From the IMG/VR virus record IMGVR_UViG_3300037461_000469, positions 1 through 29,751 of that record: a DNA stretch of 29,751 nucleotides; one strand, written 5' to 3'. Made by a program: the position numbers and the translations under genes. This stretch comes from a virus. Taxonomy: Duplodnaviria > Heunggongvirae > Uroviricota > Caudoviricetes. Of this stretch, positions 5,926-17,623 are shown piece by piece; the first letter of the stretch is position 1; each line of letters starts with the position of its first letter. Below the pieces are notes generated by a model that was not told the origin of the DNA, searched no databases, and saw nothing but the letters and a program-made list of their open reading frames with translations.

Positions 5926-7610
5926 TGAGCAGAAGAATATTTCAAAACTGTGATAAAGTCTTCACCATCGAAGATAATGGCGTAATCACAGCAGGAGATA
6001 CACAGGGTTATGATGACTTAGCCCAAGCATCAGGACATAGTGGATACAACAATATCCCTAACCTGAACTTTATCGATGACCGAACAGTTGGTGTATTGAC
6101 AGTACCAACTTTTAAGGATAATGGTGATGGAACAGTAACAATAGGAGCCACAACTGTCCATCTTCGGGACAATCCCAACAGCACGGGGGCCATTATTGAA
6201 TATCCTGTAGCGGGTGCAACATTAGGCCCATTGACAATTAGTGGTATGCAGTATATCACTATTCATTACAACGGCGGCAGTCCTGAATATAGAATAGTAA
6301 ATTATCCAACCCAAACTAGCAGTAGTGATGAGATAATTGTTTTTGTTGTATGGCGTATTGATGATGGAGTCATCGATGAAGTTCATTCTATCGATACGGG
6401 AACTGTCGGTAAAGGACTTGCCAATAAAATGTTTTTTGTCCAAGCATGGACAGACCCTTATAGATTATTTTATGGTGATTATACAACAGCCCGTATTGCT
6501 GAAATCACCACACCTACAAACAGAACAATCACCGTTACAGGCGGCCCCGTTTATGCCCTCAATCAAATAGTAACACTAGGTAATTTTGATTCTTCCGTGG
6601 ATAGAATGACCTTTACTCGACAGGTTGCAGGAGTTTGGACATATTCAGACGAAACAACATACAACAATACCGACTATTGTAATGCTGGAGTCGTAACTCC
6701 TATTCCTGCAAATAAGTATGCAGTTAGATGGTTTTATCGAAGCATCGGAGATGCCAAACAAGTATTTTATCTTTTAGGAAGGAACTATTACAACACTTCC
6801 GATTTAGCAAAAAAAGAAATACCTTACGATACAATTCCTTCTGTTCTTCGCTACCATTGTATGCTTATCGGCAGGTCGGTTGTTCAGGAAGGCGTAGTAG
6901 ATGGTGAAACAGAAACCTATTTTGTTTCAGGTGGCGGTGGAGGCGGCGGTGGTGTTGGTGCATCGGGATTTAGTGGTGAAAGTGGTTACAGCGGCAAGTC
7001 AGGATACTCTGCTTACTCAGGCGTATCAGGCTATTCTGCATACTCAGGAGTTAGCGGTTACTCAGCCTACAGCGGTGTGTCGGGTTACAGCGGCATATCA
7101 GGCTTTTCTGCCTACAGCGGAGTATCGGGATATTCTGCATACTCAGGTATATCGGGGTTTAGCGGATATCGGACAAATATTATTTCCCAAGCCCACACAT
7201 TTGCTGTAGGTGATGTTATTCGGTATGATGGGGGGACGAATACTTATATTAAAGCGCAAGCCGATTCAGTCGTAAATGCCGAAGTTATCGGCATCGTTAC
7301 GGCAGTTCCAAGCGGTACGGTATTTGAATATATTACTCACGGTATAGTATCGGGATTAGTTGGATTGACGGATGGTGATGTATATTTTTTAAGTGAAACT
7401 ACTGCGGGTTTGCTAACGGATGTTTCCCCAACCGATATAGGGGAAGTATCAAAACCCCTATTGTTAGCCACTTCATCAACAGAAGGAATATTTTTTAACT
7501 TTCGTGGTGTGGAAATTGTAGAGGATAGAGGAATTTCGGGATATTCGGGTTATTCAGGCGGCGGTGGAAGTGGTGGAGCAGATATATTACAAGTTCAAAT
7601 ATTTAGTTAG
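5925..7610 (+). CDS. Gly-X-Ser repeat virion/tail-fibre protein
   Basis: 561 aa. GYS/AYS tract at about 6961-7168. Domain QAHTFAVGDVIRY..YIKAQAD..EVIGIV..GDVYFLSETTAG resembles common phage virion domains. Ends GGADILQVQIFS. Confidence 0.75.
   Translation: MSRRIFQNCDKVFTIEDNGVITAGDTQGYDDLAQASGHSGYNNIPNLNFIDDRTVGVLTVPTFKDNGDGTVTIGATTVHLRDNPNSTGAIIEYPVAGATLGPLTISGMQYITIHYNGGSPEYRIVNYPTQTSSSDEIIVFVVWRIDDGVIDEVHSIDTGTVGKGLANKMFFVQAWTDPYRLFYGDYTTARIAEITTPTNRTITVTGGPVYALNQIVTLGNFDSSVDRMTFTRQVAGVWTYSDETTYNNTDYCNAGVVTPIPANKYAVRWFYRSIGDAKQVFYLLGRNYYNTSDLAKKEIPYDTIPSVLRYHCMLIGRSVVQEGVVDGETETYFVSGGGGGGGGVGASGFSGESGYSGKSGYSAYSGVSGYSAYSGVSGYSAYSGVSGYSGISGFSAYSGVSGYSAYSGISGFSGYRTNIISQAHTFAVGDVIRYDGGTNTYIKAQADSVVNAEVIGIVTAVPSGTVFEYITHGIVSGLVGLTDGDVYFLSETTAGLLTDVSPTDIGEVSKPLLLATSSTEGIFFNFRGVEIVEDRGISGYSGYSGGGGSGGADILQVQIFS
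6961..7168 (+). repeat. Gly/Ala-X-Ser coding tandem repeat
   Basis: Repeated SGYSAYSGV-type 9-residue units. Confidence 0.9.
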
Positions 7611-7621
7611 GAGAATAAAGA

Positions 7622-7978
7622 ATGGCAACATATTCAAAACAAAAATTGAGTGGTTCAACAAATGGAAAGGCTATTAAACTATCTGGAACTGATTCGGCAG
7701 GAGCAGTAACAATTCATACTGCTATCAATAATGAAACAGATTGGGATGAAGTATGGGTATATTGTAATAATACTTCGGCGGCATCAGTAAAATTAACAAT
7801 TGAATGGGGAACTTCCACTGCGGCAGATGGAAATATAGAAAAAACTATACCCGCTGAAGATGGATTATACTGTATAATTCCAGGGTTGATTCTTCAAAAC
7901 TCATTAGTAATAGAAGCATTTGCGGGAACAGCAAATGTATTGTTGATTACTGGATTTGTAAATAGGATAACAGCATAA
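7622..7978 (+). CDS. Conserved phage structural protein (small beta-sandwich)
   Basis: 118 aa, SD AGGAG. MATYSKQKLSGSTNGKAIK...DEVWVY...KLTIEWG...GFVNRIT is a pattern I recognise from phage hypothetical proteins. Confidence 0.7.
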   Translation: MATYSKQKLSGSTNGKAIKLSGTDSAGAVTIHTAINNETDWDEVWVYCNNTSAASVKLTIEWGTSTAADGNIEKTIPAEDGLYCIIPGLILQNSLVIEAFAGTANVLLITGFVNRITA

Positions 7979-7980
7979 AA

Positions 7981-8685
7981 ATGAGTAGAGCCTTTTATCG
8001 AAATCGATTGGTATTGGGGGCAATACCACAAATACCAAGAACATATTATGGTGCTAGTTTATTACACATGAATGGAGATAATGAATCAACTACTTTTACC
8101 GATGTTTCTGGAAAAATTTGGACTCCAAATGGAAATGCTAAATTATCAACCTCTAGTCCTAAATTTGGAACTGCTTGTGGAACATTTGCTGCCGCTACTG
8201 ATTATATCTCTACTCCAGCAAATACAGATTTTAATTTAGCAACAAATAATTTTACGATTGATTTTTGGTGTATAGTTCCAGATGCGGTTACAAATGTAAA
8301 TTTTTATAAACAACGGTTGGATGGTGATAACTATGTCGCTATATCAAGAAACATGACTTATGGTTCTTGGTTTTATGCTGAATTGTCTAATACCCAAGTC
8401 ATATATTGTCTTGCTGGTAATCTAAAAAGTATAGGGGGTGGCACGGCTTGGACTCATATTGCCGTTACTAGAAGCGGTAGTGCATGGAAATTTTTTGCGG
8501 GGGGAGTAGACCAAACAACATCAGGAAGCACTTCATCTGCAACGGTTCCTTATTTTGCTTCAACTGATATTATAATAGGAGAACAAACATCGGGAACTGG
8601 CACAGTCAAACTTGATGAATTTAGAATTTTGAATGGTGAGGCTATATGGACTTCCAATTTTTCAGTTCCGACAGCAGAGTATTAA
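7981..8685 (+). CDS. LamG/concanavalin-A-like jelly-roll virion protein
   Basis: LLHMNG...TFTDVS...KFG...NFTIDFW...WTHIAVTRSG...LDEFRI..G.A.WTSNF is a typical LamG-like signature. Confidence 0.8.
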   Translation: MSRAFYRNRLVLGAIPQIPRTYYGASLLHMNGDNESTTFTDVSGKIWTPNGNAKLSTSSPKFGTACGTFAAATDYISTPANTDFNLATNNFTIDFWCIVPDAVTNVNFYKQRLDGDNYVAISRNMTYGSWFYAELSNTQVIYCLAGNLKSIGGGTAWTHIAVTRSGSAWKFFAGGVDQTTSGSTSSATVPYFASTDIIIGEQTSGTGTVKLDEFRILNGEAIWTSNFSVPTAEY

Positions 8686-8733: not shown

Positions 8734-9519
8734 ATGGCACAATCTGCAACAATAATTTATGGTCGCTCAGGATTTTCAGGATTCAGCGGAACAGGTTTCT
8801 CTGGATTCAGCGGCTATAGTAGTTTCAGCGGATACTCAGGCAAATCAGGGTACAGCGGCATATCAGGATTTTCTTCGCAATCGGGATACAGCGGCTATTC
8901 AGGCGTATCCGGCTACTCCGCATACTCAGGTGTATCGGGGTACAGCGGTAAGTCGGGTTATAGCGGATACTCAGGCGTATCAGGCTACTCAGCCTACTCA
9001 GGCGTAAGCGGTTACAGCGGCAAGTCGGGCTATAGCGGCTACTCAGGCGTGTCGGGCTTCTCTGCGTACTCAGGCGTATCAGGCTATAGCGGCGTGTCAG
9101 GCGTAAGCGGCTACTCAGGTATATCGGGTTACAGCGGCTACTCAGGCGTGTCAGGCTACTCAGGCATATCGGGCTACTCAGGCATCAGCGGTTACTCAGG
9201 CTACAGCGGCTATTCTGGACAAATACCCGCAACAGGAAATTCAGGTTATGTATCTAAATTTACTTCTACTACTGCATTAGGTAATTCTATACTTTATGAT
9301 AATGGAACAACAGTTTCCATAGGTATTACTGGTGGTGATGCAAATGCTATATTACAATTGGACAGCACTACGCAAGGATTTTTACTACCAAGAATGACAA
9401 CAGCACAAAAAAATGCTATTGATACTCCACCTGAAGGATTAATAGTTTATGATACAACACTTCATATACTTTGTTATTATAATGGTTCTAGTTGGGTATC
9501 TATTGGGACTTATGCTTAG
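8734..9519 (+). CDS. Gly-X-Ser repeat virion protein
   Basis: 261 aa. About 150 aa of G-X-S triplets, then AILQLDSTTQGFLLPRMTTAQKNAI..P.EGLIVYDT...YNGSSW, a domain common in fibre proteins. Confidence 0.8.
   Translation: MAQSATIIYGRSGFSGFSGTGFSGFSGYSSFSGYSGKSGYSGISGFSSQSGYSGYSGVSGYSAYSGVSGYSGKSGYSGYSGVSGYSAYSGVSGYSGKSGYSGYSGVSGFSAYSGVSGYSGVSGVSGYSGISGYSGYSGVSGYSGISGYSGISGYSGYSGYSGQIPATGNSGYVSKFTSTTALGNSILYDNGTTVSIGITGGDANAILQLDSTTQGFLLPRMTTAQKNAIDTPPEGLIVYDTTLHILCYYNGSSWVSIGTYA
8761..9219 (+). repeat. Gly-X-Ser coding tandem repeat
   Basis: Repeated SGYSG/SGVSG/SAYSG triplets. Confidence 0.9.
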
Positions 9520-9602
9520 ACACAAATAATATTGGTAAAAATATTAAATGACAAATTATGGTTTAAATACTAAATATATATGGATAACCGTTAGGAGGAA
9601 AA

Positions 9603-10976
9603 ATGGCAGATAAAATGTATTTTATGTCGAGCGATATGTTCGCTATGACTAACCCAGGCCAAAAGTTTGTAACTTGGAATGGTTCAACTTGGATATTGGA
9701 TGAAGAGCGTTGGTTCAATTATTGCGCTTTGGATATGGCGAATCGTGGAGTTAATATGATGAGGTGGTTAGGATGGGGTGTATGGCCTAATTGGAATGAC
9801 CCTAATGGATACAAAACCAATCTCACCCCATTCATTCAGGTTTCAGATGGCGTATTTGACCTTACGAAACGTAACGACAAGTATTGGGAAATTGCAGAGA
9901 AAATGATTCGGATTATGAATTATCCCTCGCAGACAGCAGGGAATACCGCACCAGGTATTACTCTTTGGATTGACCTTTTCTATCAATATACCAATGATAG
10001 TAATGACCAACAATTTTCTCCTTGGCGCAATAACGTTCAAGAAACTAAAGACCTTTACGACATTGAAAATCGTCAGTATGCTTTGGCGTATATGTTGGAA
10101 TGGTTTAAACTCGCAAAAGAAAAAGGCTTAAAGATTATTTTCGGAATGGGTAATGAAATGACGGCAGAAAGTCTAGACTTTTGTTACTTCATTTTGGATA
10201 CAATGGACCAGCAAAGAATTTGGCCTCATGCTTGGGGAATTTGTCCTGATATTCCTTCAAATGGTAATGACCTTTTTAAGAAACTTCCAGGTTATATTTA
10301 TGATAGAGGTTTATTCATGTGGCATCCTCTACGTCAAGACCCTGCTGATAGATGGGACACAAGTATTATTCGTCCAACCCACGGTTGCTGCGGCTGCGTC
10401 AACAATCAAGGGGTGAATGTATTTGAACAGGCTATGCAATATTGGGCTTGTCTTCCTGTTCGTTGGCAAGTAAGCGATGATGGTTGTATGGGTGGTGCTA
10501 CACCACGGCCAGGCGTTGACCAATGGACAGATATGGTAACTAAAATTTGTACTTGGCGAGGAACGGATGCTTTAACCTTAGATTGGGCTGGTATTGATAA
10601 ACCAACGATGGGTATTGAACACCTTCCTGACGATGAACTTTGGGACGATTGCAGAGATGAACAACTCAAAATTTTTGAAGCAATGGCGGCCCCTTATGAA
10701 CAATATGTTGCGCCGTGGGAAAATAAAGGTAAGTGGACAGTTCCTTACATCAAGCCTGAGTGTCAAATTGGAGAAACCAAGACCGAAACTTGTTGGGATG
10801 GCTCGACAATCGTTACTCACACTTGTGAAAATAACCATTGGGTTCCTACCAATGCGACTTGCCCTTCGCAGGATTGCAAGTGCATCTACTACTTGAACAT
10901 TCACGACAGTTGGCTTGGTATCCCGAACTTCATCAAGTGTATCTTGGGGAAGAAAGACCCATACTGCAAAAAGTAA
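9603..10976 (+). CDS. Glycoside-hydrolase-like TIM-barrel protein (GH-A clan/GH5-like) with Cys-rich C-terminal extension
   Basis: SD AGGAGG. MANRGVNMMRW, GITLWIDLF and IIFGMGNEM (NE acid/base-like motif). Trp/Tyr-rich. Eight Cys in the last about 70 aa. Confidence 0.55.
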   Translation: MADKMYFMSSDMFAMTNPGQKFVTWNGSTWILDEERWFNYCALDMANRGVNMMRWLGWGVWPNWNDPNGYKTNLTPFIQVSDGVFDLTKRNDKYWEIAEKMIRIMNYPSQTAGNTAPGITLWIDLFYQYTNDSNDQQFSPWRNNVQETKDLYDIENRQYALAYMLEWFKLAKEKGLKIIFGMGNEMTAESLDFCYFILDTMDQQRIWPHAWGICPDIPSNGNDLFKKLPGYIYDRGLFMWHPLRQDPADRWDTSIIRPTHGCCGCVNNQGVNVFEQAMQYWACLPVRWQVSDDGCMGGATPRPGVDQWTDMVTKICTWRGTDALTLDWAGIDKPTMGIEHLPDDELWDDCRDEQLKIFEAMAAPYEQYVAPWENKGKWTVPYIKPECQIGETKTETCWDGSTIVTHTCENNHWVPTNATCPSQDCKCIYYLNIHDSWLGIPNFIKCILGKKDPYCKK

Positions 10977-11011: not shown

Positions 11012-12394
11012 ATGGATAAAATCTTAAAAAATCCGCAGTTAGTATCGGCAGAATTATTTACTACAGGTTTTTGTAATTTAGACTGCTCCTACTGTTATAT
11101 TGAAAAGACGGACTATCTCAAAAAAATCCACCAAGATATTCTAAAAAAGATACAGACAGGGGAATATATCAAGGAACTCTATTCTCTTTACGGAGACCAA
11201 CTTGAAGCCATCACCTTTTGGGGAACAGAACCTCTGCTTTCTTTAAACTTGTTAGTAGAACAGGTTCCATCCATTCTTCAAGTCTTTCCAAAACTTAATC
11301 ACTTCGGCTTCTCGACAAACTTGATGGTAAATACTCAAAGCATAATCAACTTTATCAAAGCGATTCCAACAGATAGGGATATCAAAATAAAGATTCAGGT
11401 TTCTATTGATGGCCCTCCTGAAATCACAGACATAAATCGTCAAGGGAGTGCAACAGTAACTATCAAGAATAATTTTCTAAATATTGTAAGAATTCTTCAA
11501 CCTATGGAATTGGGAAAGGTAAGTGTAGAGTTCGTACTGAAGCCCACTTGGTCAACTGAAAATCTGATGTGGTTCATCAAGGAACCATCTAGACTCTATT
11601 ACTACTTTTACTTCTTCGATGAGTGGATAGAAAGAGCAAAAACAATTAACAAATCGAAAAATATCTGTCTTAATATTCAAGGTATACCCACGATGGCTGT
11701 TCCCGGCACCTATACTTCAAAAGATGGAAAAATGTTTGCAAAACTCTGTGATGACCTTGCCTTTCTAGCATATAAAAATAAAAAATCTTCTCTCTTCATT
11801 CATCACCGTGGTTTATTTAACTCATATTCCTATAGACTGATACGTTTACTCAATCACAATAGAGAATTTGCTATGAGACCTGAAAATTTTTCTTGTTCGG
11901 CAGGGAGGTCGCAAAACCAATTAGGAGAACACAGAGACTTTCACCTTTGCCATCGTTCTCTTTTTATGAATCATCCTGAATATGTAAATGAGTTGAAGGA
12001 TGAAGGTAATTGGGATTTCCACTTACAGCAGAAGGATAGAATAAACCTGTTAAAGAATAAACACATCGTGAATATCGATGACCAATTAGAAGTAGATAGA
12101 GCGTCATATACATGGCTAGCAGGCCAAGCCTTTTCCAAACATAAGATAGCCTGTGGTCTAGCAAATATTAAGGAACTAGTTTACAGCAAACAAATTGATG
12201 AGATATACGAAGATAAGGATTTGGCTTATTTATTTTCTATCTTTATTAACTATGCCCTAGGATGCCCTGCGGAAAATATACTCCAAACAGGAACCCTTTT
12301 TAGTTCATCATTATCTTTATACAGACTATTCGGTAACGGCGCATTTTCAATAATTTTAAGAGAGGTCAGAAATGAGTTATCAGCAAGAGAATAA
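11012..12394 (+). CDS. Radical SAM protein with reduced (twitch-like) auxiliary domain
   Basis: CNLDCSYC (CxxxCxxC), ITFWGTEP, FSTN, VSIDGP..DINR. C-terminal FSCSAG...FHLCHR. Confidence 0.88.
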   Translation: MDKILKNPQLVSAELFTTGFCNLDCSYCYIEKTDYLKKIHQDILKKIQTGEYIKELYSLYGDQLEAITFWGTEPLLSLNLLVEQVPSILQVFPKLNHFGFSTNLMVNTQSIINFIKAIPTDRDIKIKIQVSIDGPPEITDINRQGSATVTIKNNFLNIVRILQPMELGKVSVEFVLKPTWSTENLMWFIKEPSRLYYYFYFFDEWIERAKTINKSKNICLNIQGIPTMAVPGTYTSKDGKMFAKLCDDLAFLAYKNKKSSLFIHHRGLFNSYSYRLIRLLNHNREFAMRPENFSCSAGRSQNQLGEHRDFHLCHRSLFMNHPEYVNELKDEGNWDFHLQQKDRINLLKNKHIVNIDDQLEVDRASYTWLAGQAFSKHKIACGLANIKELVYSKQIDEIYEDKDLAYLFSIFINYALGCPAENILQTGTLFSSSLSLYRLFGNGAFSIILREVRNELSARE

Positions 12395-13706
12395 TGAAAT
12401 CGTAAAAAACTTTTTAGAACGAACATATTTCAAAGCGTGGAGAGAATGGGAAGCCGCTGAAAAGGATACGGGATATTTTCTCAATAATTACAGGAATCTA
12501 GAGTTCGACCTCTCTGACGTTTGTGAGTTAAAATGCTCATATTGTTACGTTACCAAATTCGGCAAACAATATTTTCCTGACCCCGCACTAAAGAACCCTC
12601 AAACAATCTTCGACAACGCTAAGGTCGTAATGGATTGGTTATGGGAGAACCAAATGAGACCTAAGTTAGAATTGTTCGGGGGCGATGCGCTCAATCAGAA
12701 GGTAGGTTTCGATATCATTAACGAAGTCATAACTAGGGCTGAAGCAGGCAAACCGTCTTTTACAGAAATCATAGTCCCAACCAATATGAATTTTCTTCTC
12801 GATGATGATAAAATAATCCTTGTTGAAGATTTTATTGAAAGAGGAAAGAAGGTAAATTTACCTTTATTTCTAAGTGCTTCTGTTGATGGTATTTATATGG
12901 AAGATAATAGGTCATTCAGAAGCAACAGAAAGAGAGATGAACAATTTTATGACAAACTCTTTAAATTCGCCAAAAAATATCACTTTGGATTTCATCCTAT
13001 GGTATATTCAGAAAACATCGAAAAATGGTGGGATAATTTTTTATGGTTTCAAAGAAAATTTAAAGAATACGATTTACCCCCAACTTCTATGTATCTTCTT
13101 GAAGTAAGAAATGCTGAATGGAACGAAGAACAATGTAAACATCTCTATGAATTTCTGAAAAAACTTACAATGTGGGTAACAAAAAACCTACAACAATACG
13201 AAGACCCTGCAAGAGAGTTCTATAGAAAAAAATGGTCATTTAATACTTTATCTAACCCATTTTCTCATATCGGTAGAGGATTAGGTTGCTCATTACAATC
13301 ATCAATGTATTTAAGAATGGGAGATTTAACTACATTTCCTTGTCATCGTTTAATGTACGATTACTTCAAATTGTTTCGTTTTATAAAAAAGGATGAAAAG
13401 ATTACCGATATTGAAGCAATTACCCCTGAGTTATTATTTGCAACTAACTCCACAAATACTTCCAATTTTCCTGTTTGTGAACATTGTATAGCAAACTCGA
13501 TATGCTCTTATGGATGTTTAGGGGCGCAGTTTGAAAACACAGGCGATATGTTCGTTCCCATTCCTTCAATGTGTAGGATGGAATTCTATAGATTAAAGGG
13601 TATTTTTGAAGGATTCAAGGAGAGTGGTTTATTGGATGGTTTATTAGGTATGGCCCAAGATGAAAGAAAAAAAATAATTTTGAGATTTATGGAGGAAACA
13701 AAATGA
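12372..13706 (+). CDS. Radical SAM/SPASM-domain protein (peptide/protein maturase-like)
   Basis: CELKCSYC, LFGGD, SASVDG..NR. SPASM-like GCSLQ...FPCHR...CEHCIANSICSYGC...SMC. Confidence 0.9.
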   Translation: MSYQQENNEIVKNFLERTYFKAWREWEAAEKDTGYFLNNYRNLEFDLSDVCELKCSYCYVTKFGKQYFPDPALKNPQTIFDNAKVVMDWLWENQMRPKLELFGGDALNQKVGFDIINEVITRAEAGKPSFTEIIVPTNMNFLLDDDKIILVEDFIERGKKVNLPLFLSASVDGIYMEDNRSFRSNRKRDEQFYDKLFKFAKKYHFGFHPMVYSENIEKWWDNFLWFQRKFKEYDLPPTSMYLLEVRNAEWNEEQCKHLYEFLKKLTMWVTKNLQQYEDPAREFYRKKWSFNTLSNPFSHIGRGLGCSLQSSMYLRMGDLTTFPCHRLMYDYFKLFRFIKKDEKITDIEAITPELLFATNSTNTSNFPVCEHCIANSICSYGCLGAQFENTGDMFVPIPSMCRMEFYRLKGIFEGFKESGLLDGLLGMAQDERKKIILRFMEETK

Positions 13707-14191
13707 ATTTAGATGAATTTATCAAGGCTTTACGTAAGTATATAGACACCCCTGATGCGGTATATATACTTGCTAGGAAAAAGGAACAATACTTGAAGGC
13801 TATTGCAATCGTAGAACGGGATGCAAAAATTTGCGACCAACAGGAAAATCCAACATTTGACTCAGCCGATGTAACCCTTCTAGTAGAAACGTTAGAACAT
13901 CTCTTAGCAGTTCTCAATGAACAGCCAATAGGTGAAGACACAACCAAATTTGCCGATGCCTATTCTACTTTGTTATACAATCACAACAAAAATACTCATA
14001 AATTAGAAAAAATTAGTACCCTTTCGCAAACGGTCAACCGCTACGCAAATCTTCGTCTAACCACGGCAGAGTTGATTCAAAATTTGAGAAAGATGAATAA
14101 ACAAATTAGAGACCTCAGTAATCTCTCTTACCAACCCGCCCAATTGAGTAAACATTATTTGGCAAGTTTCGACAAGAAGAATAATAAATAA
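13703..14191 (+). CDS. Hypothetical alpha-helical protein, coupled to the rSAM pair
   Basis: 162 aa, ATGA overlap with the rSAM/SPASM gene, SD GGAGG. Confidence 0.75.
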   Translation: MNLDEFIKALRKYIDTPDAVYILARKKEQYLKAIAIVERDAKICDQQENPTFDSADVTLLVETLEHLLAVLNEQPIGEDTTKFADAYSTLLYNHNKNTHKLEKISTLSQTVNRYANLRLTTAELIQNLRKMNKQIRDLSNLSYQPAQLSKHYLASFDKKNNK

Positions 14192-14208
14192 TATAGAGGA
14201 TTATATCT

Positions 14209-14856
14209 ATGCCTTTTACTTGGACAACACTTCCTGTTACTGCTGGCTCTAGCCAAATCGTATCACCTATAGTTGCTGAAATTCGTACAAATATCAACAC
14301 CGATAGAGGATATGTGGGGTTAGCCGCCATTGGAGCGGCACCAGGGACGTTCCCTACTAATTGGACAAAAACTATCGCCGCAGGAGTAAAGATAGAAGAG
14401 GCAGAATATACAGAAATGAAAACAGCACTAGATGCGGCTTGGGATGCAAATATTTGTACTGCACATCGGGTAACACATTATTCAATCTATCAAAGTACTC
14501 ACGATGCTTCCTATCGAGCAACCCATCAAACCACCTACCTAAGTGGCGATGATGGAACTGTAGAATCTAGCCATTTACATACAAACCGCGCAACTCACTA
14601 CGCAACCTATCAGGGAAGTCATCATACTTCAGATAAAGATACAAATAATACTTCTCACGATGTGGATTATCACGCATCTCATTGGACAACCCATTACGGA
14701 ACAAATCTTGCAAAACATAATGCCTCCTATGATGTTGTATATAATTCAGGCGGGGTAAATAATTTCTACTATGTTAGTGATGAGACAGGATATGATAATG
14801 GTGTGAACAGCGGCGATAATAACACATATGAAGGAGCATATAATCCTATCATTTAA
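14209..14856 (+). CDS. His/Tyr tetrad-repeat protein A (candidate rSAM substrate)
   Basis: 215 aa, SD AGAGGA. Residues 86-181 form 24 consecutive four-residue units starting with H/Y/D/N (one V), most ending in S/T. Confidence 0.8.
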   Translation: MPFTWTTLPVTAGSSQIVSPIVAEIRTNINTDRGYVGLAAIGAAPGTFPTNWTKTIAAGVKIEEAEYTEMKTALDAAWDANICTAHRVTHYSIYQSTHDASYRATHQTTYLSGDDGTVESSHLHTNRATHYATYQGSHHTSDKDTNNTSHDVDYHASHWTTHYGTNLAKHNASYDVVYNSGGVNNFYYVSDETGYDNGVNSGDNNTYEGAYNPII

Positions 14857-14874
14857 TATAGAGGGATAAATAAA

Positions 14875-15447
14875 ATGAGTTATTCAGCAGGATGTAAGGA
14901 TTGGACGCAAACAATTGCTATTGGTGGCGTAGTCGAAGCCGTTGACGTAAACGAATTTAAAACCAATGTGGATTGGATAAAGGATAACCTAGCCTGTCTC
15001 TCCCATAATACCACTTACCGCTCAACACATTATACCGGCGATGACGTAAGCCATAATACAACTTATCGCGGAACTCACGATACAGGAGTTCGAACAACCC
15101 ATGACACTTCAGAAAAATCATCTCACGATTCAACTTATCGGGCAACCCATTACACAGGCGACCTTTCATCCCACTACGAACAAAATTATAATAATCACGA
15201 TACAGGTTACGATGCGACTTATAATGTAACCCATTTACTAATCGCAAACACTGGCGACGATGCAACTTATATTGGTTTTCATTGCGTAGCAGACTTGAAT
15301 GAGTATGATAACGTTCATTGGATGTCTCAGGACGTAGGATATGATTCAACCGTAAGAGGAACTCACTACACAACTTATAACGATACTCATTTAGGAGCCT
15401 ATTTCTCCAAAGATAATACTTCAGATTTGGGTATAGACTCTCCTTAA
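14875..15447 (+). CDS. His/Tyr tetrad-repeat protein B (candidate rSAM substrate)
   Basis: 190 aa, SD GAGGG. All 14 His fall at positions divisible by 4. N-terminal motif shared with 14209..14856. Confidence 0.8.
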   Translation: MSYSAGCKDWTQTIAIGGVVEAVDVNEFKTNVDWIKDNLACLSHNTTYRSTHYTGDDVSHNTTYRGTHDTGVRTTHDTSEKSSHDSTYRATHYTGDLSSHYEQNYNNHDTGYDATYNVTHLLIANTGDDATYIGFHCVADLNEYDNVHWMSQDVGYDSTVRGTHYTTYNDTHLGAYFSKDNTSDLGIDSP

Positions 15448-15469
15448 AAACATAATAAAGGATTTAAAA

Positions 15470-16468
15470 ATGAAAGTTTTTCTGACGAATTTAGATGTCG
15501 GCAGCGGAATTGCTTACGTTGGTGGCGTAATTAAGAATTGGCTTCAGGAATTACCTATCACCCTTTTCGAATACAGAGACCAAACATCGGAATCCGCAAC
15601 CTATGCAGTACTACAAAGAGAAAAGCCTGACGTTATTGTGATAAACGAAATCTACCCTCGGATAATTTCACCTGTTCTTTACTACAAGATGACTTATCCG
15701 CAGACTGTAGTAATCCTTTTCTCGCACTCGCAGAAGGCTCTTTTGTCTGTACAAACTAACGATGCAAGCAAGCACAATCAACATACTGTACTGATGGATT
15801 TGATACACCGTTCTAAAGCCGTTTACGTTCTAGGAGCAAGAACGGAAAAAAATATAGGCAGAGAGATTGTCAAATTCTGTCCTTCTGACCCTGAAATTTT
15901 TTCTAATAAAACAAATTGGAACAAGAGACCTAATCTCTTTTGCATGATAAGTAATATTTACCCTGTAAAAGTATGCGAAGAATTTCTGAAGTTGGTAAAA
16001 AATATTCCTACCTCAATTGATGTGTATGGAGAATTACTTGATAGGTTCATAAGCCAATCTTACAAAGAATTATTCCTAGAGGCCACAAAACATAATCTTT
16101 GTTATAGGGGTGCGCTTTACCAAGAAAAAGTAGGCGAAGTACTCAATCAATACAAGTACATCATTTTTCCGCATCACGGACACGAATCGTTTTTTATGGT
16201 GCTTCATCAAGCCATTATGTGCGGAACCATCCCCATCGTTTTGAATGATAGAAGTGGAAAAGATTTTGATGGCTCGTGGATTGATTGGTGTGATGGGTTA
16301 TATTTTGGGGTAGAAAAAATTGAAGATTTTATTTCTAACTTAATAAAATTATCCACAGATAGGACAGATTTAACACCTGTCTCAAAATTTATTTCAACCG
16401 AAGTGATGAAGAGATTTGACTACTACGCCTTCAAAAAGGAATTTCAAACTTTTTTAGATAAACTATAA
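15470..16468 (+). CDS. GT-B fold glycosyltransferase (GT4-like)
   Basis: PDVIVIN, IDVYG...YRGAL. YKYIIFP..HESFFMVLHQAIMCGTIPIV resembles the GT4 ExFGxxxxEAxxxGxPVI motif. Confidence 0.75.
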   Translation: MKVFLTNLDVGSGIAYVGGVIKNWLQELPITLFEYRDQTSESATYAVLQREKPDVIVINEIYPRIISPVLYYKMTYPQTVVILFSHSQKALLSVQTNDASKHNQHTVLMDLIHRSKAVYVLGARTEKNIGREIVKFCPSDPEIFSNKTNWNKRPNLFCMISNIYPVKVCEEFLKLVKNIPTSIDVYGELLDRFISQSYKELFLEATKHNLCYRGALYQEKVGEVLNQYKYIIFPHHGHESFFMVLHQAIMCGTIPIVLNDRSGKDFDGSWIDWCDGLYFGVEKIEDFISNLIKLSTDRTDLTPVSKFISTEVMKRFDYYAFKKEFQTFLDKL

Positions 16469-16482
16469 ATAAATTTAATAAA

Positions 16483-16821
16483 ATGAAAATAATATTTATT
16501 AAATTTCTTAAATATCTACCGTGGGCATTTATTCAACAAATATTTGTCATTACTCTTTTTATTTTTTTCTTTTCGCATATAACAGTTTTTGGGGCAATTT
16601 TTTCCGCAGTTTCGATTTTTTCTTTTCTTCATTTTCCTAACAAATTTTTGATGTTTTTGACATTTTTTATAGAGATTATATTTTTATATTTTTATACAAG
16701 TGTATTTTCTTTATTATGGATAACGGGGGTTCATGCCCTTATTGCCGTATTGGTTAAAATCTACGTTCCTAGTGATATTACCCACGGTATGAGGGTTCTT
16801 TGGAATTATTATAAAAATTAA
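16483..16821 (+). CDS. Small membrane protein, CPBP/CAAX-protease (Abi)-like
   Basis: Several hydrophobic segments. WAFIQQ (EE-motif position), IFSFLHFPN (FxxxH) and LLWITGVHAL (Hxxx motif). Confidence 0.55.
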   Translation: MKIIFIKFLKYLPWAFIQQIFVITLFIFFFSHITVFGAIFSAVSIFSFLHFPNKFLMFLTFFIEIIFLYFYTSVFSLLWITGVHALIAVLVKIYVPSDITHGMRVLWNYYKN

Positions 16822-16844: not shown

Positions 16845-17165
16845 TTAATCCCTTTTTTCTTCGAACTGCGCACAGTAGGCAATCTGTAAACCGACATAGG
16901 GCATCCCGTCTTTTGTCATCGAATCCATCATCGTCATGTATTTTTTGGTCTTTTCCCCGACCTTCCGACAGGCAGAAATGCGATGGTTTGCCACCACTCC
17001 TTCTTCAGCGGAGTGCTTGCAATTGACGCAACCTACCGCATCTTTGATTTCCCCTAGCATTTGGCGTGAGATTGCCCCATTTAAGACTATCTGGAGCCGT
17101 GCCTTGCGCCCCAGGCGGGTCAAACGTTTGTTTTTCGGCTCGTAGCCCTCAATAATGGGTATCAT
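16845..17165 (-). CDS. Hypothetical protein with CxxC..C..C
   Basis: 106 aa, SD AAGG-like. CVNCKH...AC...YC. GC-rich codon usage. Confidence 0.7.
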   Translation of the reverse strand: MIPIIEGYEPKNKRLTRLGRKARLQIVLNGAISRQMLGEIKDAVGCVNCKHSAEEGVVANHRISACRKVGEKTKKYMTMMDSMTKDGMPYVGLQIAYCAQFEEKRD

Positions 17166-17179
17166 CGATTTAAAGCCTT

Positions 17180-17623
17180 TTAAACGCTATTTTTGTCCTC
17201 AAAATACGTCCTGAGAATGGTGCTGTAGATGTGTGAATTGGGGATGTAACGGGGATTGTCGAACACGAACGTATCATCGTTGTACAGAATTTTCCCGATT
17301 GCGGCGGCTGTAGCCGAACTGCGGCTGATACCCGCATCGCATTGTACTACACAATGCTGTATATTTTCTTTTGCTTTCAAAACTAAATTTAAAATTTCTT
17401 TAGCATGATTTTTAGAAAATATAATGAGTCCTTCACCTTTATCTCTTACACCATAATCGTGTACCCATAATTCTATGTGTCCTTTACACCAAGGAGAAAA
17501 TATTATAGGCTTGTAATAAGTTTTAGGAGTTCTGTATCCTATACAAATATGATTATATGGATAAACAGCACTTACTTTTCTCCATTTTTCGAATGACATT
17601 ATGGTTATAAATATTCTATCCAT
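17180..17623 (-). CDS. Protein-tyrosine/dual-specificity phosphatase-like protein
   Basis: P-loop VVQCDAGISRSSA (CxxGxSRS), followed by the PNSHIY motif seen in small phage/bacterial PTP-like proteins. Confidence 0.8.
   Translation of the reverse strand: MDRIFITIMSFEKWRKVSAVYPYNHICIGYRTPKTYYKPIIFSPWCKGHIELWVHDYGVRDKGEGLIIFSKNHAKEILNLVLKAKENIQHCVVQCDAGISRSSATAAAIGKILYNDDTFVFDNPRYIPNSHIYSTILRTYFEDKNSV

Follow-up and report, generated by a model that had tools for sequence, protein, structure and literature searches.

What the seven co-oriented genes at positions 11012-16821 of a tailed-phage genome (Caudoviricetes) do together is the question raised by the window analysed here, a stretch of 29,751 nucleotides from IMG/VR virus record IMGVR_UViG_3300037461_000469. 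It covers the first 29.7 kb of a 168.8-kb record with an estimated completeness of 74%. An earlier sequence-only reading had proposed a dedicated protein-modification cassette analogous to the His-Xaa-Ser and CXXX-repeat systems with their two radical S-adenosylmethionine (SAM) enzymes, consisting of twin radical SAM enzymes, a helical accessory protein, two repeat proteins that share an N-terminal motif, a GT-B glycosyltransferase and a CPBP-like membrane protein. A dedicated cassette of this type is supported by the peptide-maturase relatives of the enzymes and by the repeat proteins found in 36 of 39 loci. The best explanation, which probably holds, is a conserved phage cassette in which two radical SAM enzymes (rSAM1 and rSAM2) and a helper modify the repeat regions of two co-encoded repeat proteins (rep1 and rep2) post-translationally.

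Relatives were collected by pattern and profile scans with the enzymes, which gave three close ones and then 35 loci on viral contigs and 17 loci on contigs of metagenome-assembled genomes (MAGs). After annotation with hidden Markov models (HMMs) from five seed loci and de-duplication, 39 loci with both radical SAM genes intact were left, with identities ranging from 30 to 68%. The helper is found in 38 of the 39. Repeat proteins were identified by HMM in 34 intact loci and in 36 after an HMM-free detector had been added, so tetrad-repeat genes do stand beside the homologues, a check that the sequence-only reading had asked for. This detector relies on a composition rich in DNSTGYH residues and on self-similarity at lags 4 and 8, and it was applied to 1586 open reading frames (ORFs); 73 were periodic, and all 73 lie on the same strand as the radical SAM pair and at most 2.5 kb from it. 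Exactly two repeat proteins, one long with a duplicated N-terminal module and one short, are encoded in 29 loci. The three loci without a detected repeat protein include L052, which has no upstream sequence, and L057, in which a His/Ser-rich membrane-anchored protein takes the position of the repeat protein (L numbers are locus handles). Gene order varies (rep-rep-rSAM1-rSAM2-helper, rSAM1-rSAM2-helper-rep-rep or rSAM1-helper-rep-rep-rSAM2-helper) and adjacency is always kept. When sampling started from the helper, the two neighbourhoods inspected had two genes for about 430-450 residues ahead of it and represent the same cassette. rSAM1, rSAM2, the helper and the two repeat proteins are thus the core cassette and form one functional unit.

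The relatives are all uncultivated, with MAG records from Guaymas sediment and groundwater whose bins belong to incompatible phyla. Because of this incompatibility, and because several of them are identical to IMG/VR viral contigs, the MAG contigs are probably mis-binned phage DNA. Reading a host from the MAG labels was rejected, as these span candidate phyla radiation (CPR) bacteria, DPANN archaea, Thermoplasmata, Omnitrophota and Bacillota. Anoxic surroundings would be favourable to radical SAM enzymes, which are sensitive to oxygen. Searches with blastn and tblastn against 50,697 deposited phages gave nothing or marginal matches to the core, and the cassette was found in no isolate phage.

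Some loci carry further genes of related classes. In L057 (2867-5580) and L061 (1862-5569), the set rSAM1-rSAM2-helper is joined by a third SPASM radical SAM enzyme resembling anSME, together with a Cys-rich protein of 284 residues in L057 and a tetratricopeptide repeat protein in L061; these sets may be cellular (CPR) versions of the system. The cassettes of L009 (13354-14451) and of the contig of P0045 lie in larger islands with extra radical SAM genes, one with DUF512, and with GT2/methyltransferase and sulfotransferase genes.

Both large proteins are radical SAM enzymes of the SPASM peptide-maturase type. Against the radical SAM model PF04055 (cutoff 29.5 bits), rSAM1 scores 30.9 bits and lies above the cutoff, whereas rSAM2 stays below it with 22.1 bits. 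The CX3CX2C motif of rSAM1 is invariant in 29 of 29 sequences, followed by just three more conserved Cys (C295, C313 and C418, kept in 29/29, 29/29 and 28/29), which corresponds to a reduced, twitch-like auxiliary region. In rSAM2, the last two Cys of CX3CX2C are present in 31 of 31 sequences and the first in 27 of 31. A complete SPASM domain was defined by the seven-Cys auxiliary motif C-x9-15-G-x4-C ... C-x2-C-x5-C-x3-C ... C, and all seven residues (C306, C324, C369, C372, C378, C382 and C401) are found in 31 of 31 rSAM2 sequences; the SPASM domain model TIGR04085 matches with E = 7e-4. The SPASM region of rSAM2 is therefore complete.

Neither enzyme reached any cutoff in the NCBIfam scan. 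The top match of both was PapB (NF047865), with 54.3 bits for rSAM1 and 53.1 bits for rSAM2 against a cutoff of 340, and the same model came first in ten relatives (33-58 bits), none of which reached a cutoff either; on rSAM2, the PapB alignment runs over the full length (residues 43-393). Compared with solved structures, the family profile of rSAM1 found ChlB first (9gm3, E = 2e-10), then anSME and CteB, and that of rSAM2 found 8vpo and CteB. All named relatives of either enzyme are peptide or protein maturases (PapB, anSME, QhpD, CteB, ChlB, GrrM, YhhB and HxsB), and membership in cofactor- or nucleotide-modification families, another check put forward with the sequence-only reading, was not seen. 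Two radical SAM enzymes are indeed present, but they are not twins as had been proposed. BLASTP gave no similarity between them outside the CX3CX2C loop, and hhalign of the two family profiles gave 91.8% probability at 18% identity by way of the first 'C...CHR' auxiliary motif; the two are distant homologues only.

In L035-L038, the rSAM2 gene (6383-8200) encodes 605 residues and its product matches the intein-containing radical SAM model NF038136 (E = 5.6e-12), which suggests an intein inside the gene. In L004, three extra genes (6476-8008 and 9486-10169) have been inserted, ahead of rSAM1 and also between the two radical SAM genes, with the cassette genes intact; judged by motif reading alone, they resemble GIY-YIG and HNH homing endonucleases. 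The helper of L062 is translatable only with TGA read as Trp, and the radical SAM genes of L030, L032, L034, L039 and L060 are fragmented under translation table 11, which together suggests stop-codon recoding in some cassette phages.

The helper had been described as a helical accessory protein, and this was confirmed by a confident all-alpha AlphaFold2 model, a six-helix bundle with a predicted local distance difference test score (pLDDT) of 88.8. The family is very divergent (mean column identity 25%) and retains an N-W-N motif and a C-terminal P-P-x-x-E-L-S-x-H-Y-L motif. No Pfam or NCBIfam family, HxsD included, was matched in scans of 21 members. Foldseek against the PDB found nothing under E = 0.19, the ESM Atlas gave no usable match, and the only strong matches in the AlphaFold database were two uncharacterised MAG proteins with a template modelling score of 0.83. 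An exhaustive profile search of 1.84 billion representatives recovered 513 helper clusters (50% identity), of which 418 reached E <= 1e-10.

In the repeat proteins, the shared N-terminal motif proposed at the outset proved to be a module conserved throughout the family. It reads M-x-F-x-W ... E-(I/L)-R-x-N-(I/V)-D ... (D/N)-x-N-x-C, with an invariant Trp and with the Asp and Cys conserved to at least 90%. The module is duplicated in rep1 (residues 1-35 and about 49-83) and ends in Cys83 (14455-14457), directly followed by tetrads from 14458 onwards that contain one register shift. In rep2, a single module with Trp10, Asp33 and Cys41 (14995-14997) precedes tetrads that begin at 14998. The whole Cys content is one residue in rep1 and three in rep2. 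His and Tyr keep a four-residue register far beyond chance in both proteins; pairs at distance 4 number 14 in rep1 (4.3 +/- 1.8 in shuffles) and 15 in rep2 (4.5 +/- 1.8 in shuffles), and 24 of the 30 His/Tyr of rep2 lie in one register.

The His/Tyr four-residue register suggested by the sequence-only reading is therefore real in the window, but it does not define the family, in which other lineages use Tyr/Asp/Ser/Gly or Gly/Asp/Asn repeats. The window lineage has tetrads of the form [S/T]-[H/Y]-x-x, many lineages have repeats of the S-G-Y-D-S-S-Y-D type, L008 has G-E-D-V-G-A-N-T, and L021 has T-V-D-S-G-D-D-V over more than 300 residues almost without aromatics. Common to the family are the N-terminal module, the Cys just ahead of the repeats and a period of four or eight. 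Self-similarity has family-wide maxima at lags 4, 8 and 12, and the mean z-scores of 50 repeat proteins are +2.9 at lag 4 and +3.6 at lag 8, against -3.2 at lag 2 and -2.5 at lag 6. His/Tyr is accordingly a lineage-specific flavour, and the constants are the 4/8 period and a nearly universal Cys ahead of the repeats. In rep1, no repeat residue is better conserved among close orthologues than His (0.75), which is also well conserved in rep2 (0.64), and Tyr, with a conservation of 0.42 in rep1 orthologues, is exchanged mainly with Val and Leu, a pattern that inward-facing strand positions would show.

Family searches with rep1 and rep2 gave no Pfam, NCBIfam or PHROG family. Direct searches with rep1 returned no viral-contig relative by peptide patterns and only two relatives in a set of 5.8 billion proteins; the family became visible only through the neighbourhoods of the enzymes. 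Elsewhere in the family, the long repeat protein of L021 passes the Pfam thresholds of the beta-helix families Gp5_trimer_C and DUF2345 (PF22178, 41.2 vs 30.9; PF10106, 52.8 vs 30.7), and the two of L008 lie just under such thresholds (25.5 and 22.1). By this similarity of architecture, a beta-helical fibre fold may be inferred for the repeat proteins of the window as well. A prediction of three rep2 copies as a homotrimer (score 0.03, fold pLDDT 28) was too poor for a verdict, and a long helix running through the repeats of the AlphaFold2 model of rep2 was dismissed as untrustworthy at a pLDDT of 55.

The N-terminal context of the repeats is variable. In L015, they form the C-terminal half of a 505-residue protein that follows an 882-residue protein, and the second repeat protein has no W-module. 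In L057 and L061, which are binned with Saccharibacteria, the N-terminus is Lys-rich with a hydrophobic helix, and L057 contains the sequence SHGSHGSHGSH. The second-gene repeat protein of L021 is devoid of the junction Cys. Sizes in the family extend from that of a precursor of ribosomally synthesised peptides with post-translational modifications (RiPPs) to 390-505 residues, and L063 (2845-3371) encodes miniatures of 71 and 99 residues with only about 35 residues of repeats.

Because Cys and repeats remain linked to the enzymes while the N-terminal context changes (L015, L057/L061), the repeat proteins are likely to be the substrates. In the proposed mechanism, the helper would dock on one of the radical SAM enzymes, as HxsD does on HxsC, and present the repeat protein, and 5'-deoxyadenosyl radical chemistry would then form intramolecular links repeatedly along the tetrads, or functionalise C-H bonds there in other ways. 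A possible link is a triceptide-like bond from the ring to C-beta at His/Tyr-x-[S/T] sites. Such cyclophane-type chemistry is the first choice, named with ChlB as the nearest solved relative of rSAM1 in mind, and has to be called unlikely all the same. The second enzyme would catalyse another step, for which the conserved junction Cys is a possible site; participation of this Cys in a thioether of the type made by PapB or QhpD, installed by the other enzyme, is rather improbable. In the window lineage, the glycosyltransferase would finally glycosylate the Ser/Thr-rich product. Rather than a small peptide that is released, this product would probably be a virion-associated protein of beta-helical, fibre-like build. 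Virion association, taken by itself, comes close to an even call with doubt slightly in the lead; it is proposed because the cassette follows fibre or tail genes in three loci (tail-fibre genes in the window, tail-tube and large unassigned genes in L008, a tail-fibre gene in L024), because of the fusion in L015 and the likeness to the C-terminal part of gp5 and to VgrG, and because the cassette has no protease or exporter.

A number of observations weigh against parts of this explanation. Gene content, enzyme class, periodicity and co-occurrence are shown, modification of the repeat proteins is inferred, and the matches of the enzymes to named families span mainly the generic N-terminal core and stay far under the cutoffs. 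Nor was the cassette found in any isolate phage whose virion proteome could be consulted. The structural-module setting is established for few loci; most upstream neighbours are without annotation, and a PHROG search with those of ten loci recognised a tail fibre only in L024. The repeat proteins of the window gave no match to PF22178 or PF10106, and the AlphaFold2 model of rep2, built with a 37-member alignment, is confident only at the module helix (residues about 20-40). Aromatic-specific chemistry is put in doubt by the exchange of Tyr with Val and Leu and by aromatic-poor arrays, which arose at least twice on the rSAM2 tree. These arrays retain a few Tyr/His tetrads at their C-terminal ends, and taking them as an exclusion of aromatic-directed chemistry was rejected on this ground.

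Other explanations of the same genes have to be considered. The modified repeat proteins might be no virion parts but RiPP-like or HxsA-like infection effectors, acting in superinfection exclusion, in counter-defence or on the cell envelope. The closest architectural analogue, the His-Xaa-Ser (HXS) system, makes a periplasmic effector that blocks phage DNA entry, the miniatures of L063 have the size of RiPP precursors, and the conserved N-terminal module could be a leader; the Lys-rich, hydrophobic N-termini of the Saccharibacteria-binned proteins suggest export or anchoring, and L057 has its SHGSHGSHGSH run. However, the repeat proteins of the phages lack a signal peptide, neither a protease nor an exporter belongs to the cassette and the single candidate for this, the small membrane ORF, is not conserved. 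The cassette is moreover co-oriented with the fibre genes and lies 3' of them, and some repeat proteins measure 250-500 residues, are fused to larger proteins or match gp5/VgrG beta-helices, which leaves the effector role improbable.

Less probable still, with a small chance each, are two explanations that change either the substrate or the reaction. The near-obligate and specific pairing of repeat proteins and enzymes, independent of gene order, is hard to reconcile with the idea that the repeat proteins are ordinary self-assembling fibre or spike proteins, perhaps binding metal through stacked His, and that the radical SAM enzymes and helper act on some other substrate. T4 gp37 binds iron through His, the repeats of some members do resemble self-assembling triple beta-helices, and neighbourhoods with more radical SAM, glycosyltransferase, methyltransferase and sulfotransferase genes suggest glycan chemistry; yet the named enzyme relatives all act on peptides or proteins, and the repeats remain with the enzymes when the N-terminal context changes. 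The substrates could also be the same and the chemistry another, either epimerisation as by PoyD and YydG or a thioether or quinone-type cofactor built, in the manner of QhpD/QhpC, from the N-terminal module's Trp, Asp and Cys. Conservation of the invariant Trp10 and of Asp33 and Cys41 (at least 90%) above any repeat position would agree with this, as would the QhpD- and PapB-family models among the best matches and the existence of aromatic-poor repeats. On the other hand, the enzymes are retained where the W-module is lost (L015) or replaced (L057/L061), the second-gene repeat protein of L021 has dispensed with the junction Cys, and the family matches are all far under the cutoffs. Modification of the repeat regions by the two enzymes and the helper is therefore kept as the preferred reading.

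Of the two remaining genes, the glycosyltransferase was recognised as proposed, since its match to PF00534 (E = 5e-8) lies above the cutoff with 33.1 versus 26.4 bits. Orthologues adjoin the cassette in 12 of the 39 intact loci, and the gene is an optional, lineage-dependent add-on of about a third of the loci; its putative role would fit O-glycosylation of a Ser/Thr-rich product. The CPBP-like membrane protein, in contrast, could not be upheld, the only one of the seven proposed identities to fail. Assignment was judged by the gathering score of Pfam, with the catalytic motif Glu-Glu-x-x-x-Arg at the N-terminus included, and the 112-residue ORF reached 11.7 bits with the Rce1-like/CPBP family PF02517, where 22.4 are required (E = 0.33), over the C-terminal profile positions 36-91 of 93 only. 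Neither L002 nor L004 has this ORF, the glycosyltransferase there being followed directly by convergent genes, and a CPBP protein as cassette member was rejected for the sub-threshold match and for the absence of the ORF from the closest relatives. The ORF is T-rich and, among close relatives, unique to the phage of the window.

Table 1. Genes of the cassette and its immediate surroundings in the window
Feature	Position	Strand	Description
Upstream gene	9603-10976	+	457 residues; C-terminal part Cys-rich
rSAM1	11012-12394	+	460 residues; CX3CX2C at C21/C25/C28; reduced auxiliary region
rSAM2	12372-13706	+	444 residues; CX3CX2C at C51/C55/C58; full seven-Cys SPASM; 23-nt overlap with rSAM1
Helper	13703-14191	+	162 residues; all-alpha accessory protein; ATGA overlap with rSAM2
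rep1, long type	14209-14856	+	215 residues; duplicated N-terminal module, then [S/T]-[H/Y]-x-x tetrads
rep2, short type	14875-15447	+	190 residues; single N-terminal module, then tetrads
GT1-family (GT-B) glycosyltransferase	15470-16468	+	332 residues; lineage-dependent cassette accessory
Small hydrophobic ORF	16483-16821	+	112 residues; outside the conserved cassette
Convergent gene	16845-17165	-	
Convergent gene	17180-17623	-	147 residues; C-x5-R-S signature

The tight packing of the seven genes, with one 23-nt and one ATGA overlap and gaps of 14-22 nt, was reproduced with exact coordinates (Table 1). A location directly after the tail-fibre block, which had also been stated, is correct as to position, but the gene for a 457-residue protein intervenes between the collagen-like tail-fibre genes and rSAM1. 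This protein gave no match in Pfam, NCBIfam or PHROG, and its gene lies directly 5' of rSAM1 only in the lineage of the window itself (window, L002, L004/L012 and L011). Downstream, the strand switches, and the two convergent genes are kept beside the cassette in L002 and L004. The 147-residue product of one of them carries a C-x5-R-S signature (C-D-A-G-I-S-R-S) and matches phrog_5614 and, below threshold, the dual-specificity phosphatase family PF00782 (16.6 bits, cutoff 33.5; E = 0.007). The T4-type late promoter motif TATAAATA was seen three times in the window against 2.3 expected, which is uninformative; one copy of this non-enriched motif lies at 16464-16471, 12 nt 5' of the 112-residue ORF. 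Scans for sigma-70 promoters and terminators gave background level only.

As to novelty, the literature yielded no paper describing the cassette or a system with such a target, in line with what the sequence-only reading had stated, and the helper and substrate families are without a curated model. Most of what is known of radical SAM/SPASM maturases concerns small bacterial peptides, and to our knowledge few of them act on whole proteins, namely anSME, QhpD and now HxsB/C. The cassette is phage-encoded, is represented by about 500 lineages at 50% identity, seems usually to sit beside fibre genes, and pairs two different radical SAM enzymes and a helper without a matched solved fold with strictly periodic, fast-evolving repeat proteins. 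If the repeats are modified, a programmable repeat scaffold with new enzyme chemistry acting on it would be indicated. A farther-reaching picture, in which phages of anoxic habitats build fibre or spike parts from proteins that are cross-linked or rewired by two dedicated radical SAM enzymes along a four-residue repeat, with a tetrad chemistry matching no characterised RiPP class, is doubtful at present. If true, a virion structural protein would here for the first time carry a radical-SAM modification installed by enzymes, and the reaction type would probably be new as well.

Five known systems offer themselves for comparison, and judged by model scores and sequence features the cassette is not a member of the HXS, CXXX, triceptide or PapB families. 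The triple beta-helices of the T4 gp5 C-terminal part and of VgrG (DUF2345) share the eight-residue repeat period and are likewise built from octads, whereas the repeat proteins of the window have neither a match to them nor a confident model. A dependence of these helices on radical SAM enzymes is not known. The group of PapB, CteB and QhpD is connected through PapB as the top NCBIfam match of all tested members and through the full seven-Cys SPASM of rSAM2, and QhpD, which serves quinohemoprotein amine dehydrogenase, is a precedent for a radical SAM enzyme cross-linking a protein subunit. PapB scores are, however, only 33-58 bits against the cutoff of 340, and the repeat proteins have one conserved Cys and no motifs of the Cys-X3-Asp/Glu type.

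Triceptide synthases, which form three-residue cyclophanes (ChlB, XyeB, GrrM/OscB, YhhB, FxsB and HaaB/HtkB; PMC11499958), include the best solved relative of rSAM1, ChlB. There are weak matches to YhhB, GrrM and AmcB, and motifs of the aromatic-X-X type, here aromatic-x-[S/T/A/G], occur in the tetrads in many copies, as in GrrA and FxsA. In contrast, the scores for YhhB (45 bits against a cutoff of 445) and GrrM (42 against 310) reflect the generic radical SAM core only (residues about 10-190), and the cassette has two enzymes and a helper instead of one enzyme. Its Tyr is replaceable by Val or Leu, some lineages are almost free of aromatics, and its substrates reach 500 residues and come without a leader protease.

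The CXXX-repeat system (TIGR04115, target PF27846) also combines a four-residue target repeat with a SPASM maturase, and a neighbour cluster of rep2 in the ESM Atlas is viral and carries PF27846 (score 0.81, to be taken as a lead only). TIGR04115 itself scores 31.8 bits with rSAM1 and 11.5 bits with rSAM2, however, against a cutoff of 350, and none of 37 repeat-protein and 21 helper members matched the models of the system. With one and three Cys, the repeat proteins of the window do not have one Cys per tetrad, and the radical SAM enzymes of Cys-richer loci still match only PapB, and weakly.

The closest known system is HXS (HxsABCD; NCBIfam TIGR03976-03979), a bacterial antiphage system in which the small HxsD is bound by HxsC and maturation of HxsA, the repeat protein, depends on both radical SAM enzymes (Li et al., Nat Commun 2026; PMC13128918). 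It differs from the cassette in several respects. HxsB (TIGR03978) scores 33.3 bits with rSAM1 and 22.4 bits with rSAM2 against a cutoff of 370 and HxsC (TIGR03977) gave no match, while the 21 helper and 37 repeat-protein members scanned include none that matches the models for HxsD (TIGR03976, LYW/LLNDYxLRE) or HxsA. The cassette has a period of four or eight instead of three, tens of repeats instead of five and two substrates instead of one; the repeat proteins of the phages carry no signal peptide or peptidoglycan-binding domain, and the genes are phage-encoded beside fibre genes, whereas HXS is a bacterial defence. Both nevertheless combine two adjacent and different radical SAM enzymes with an accessory protein that is small and dedicated, and with a repeat-bearing protein instead of a short peptide as the target, and the tetrads of the window often have a His followed by Ser or Thr two residues on. 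The cassette is thus alike to HXS in architecture without belonging to it, and, if its repeats are modified, it would be a new viral way to stabilise or diversify host-contact structures and the mirror image of the bacterial HXS defence.

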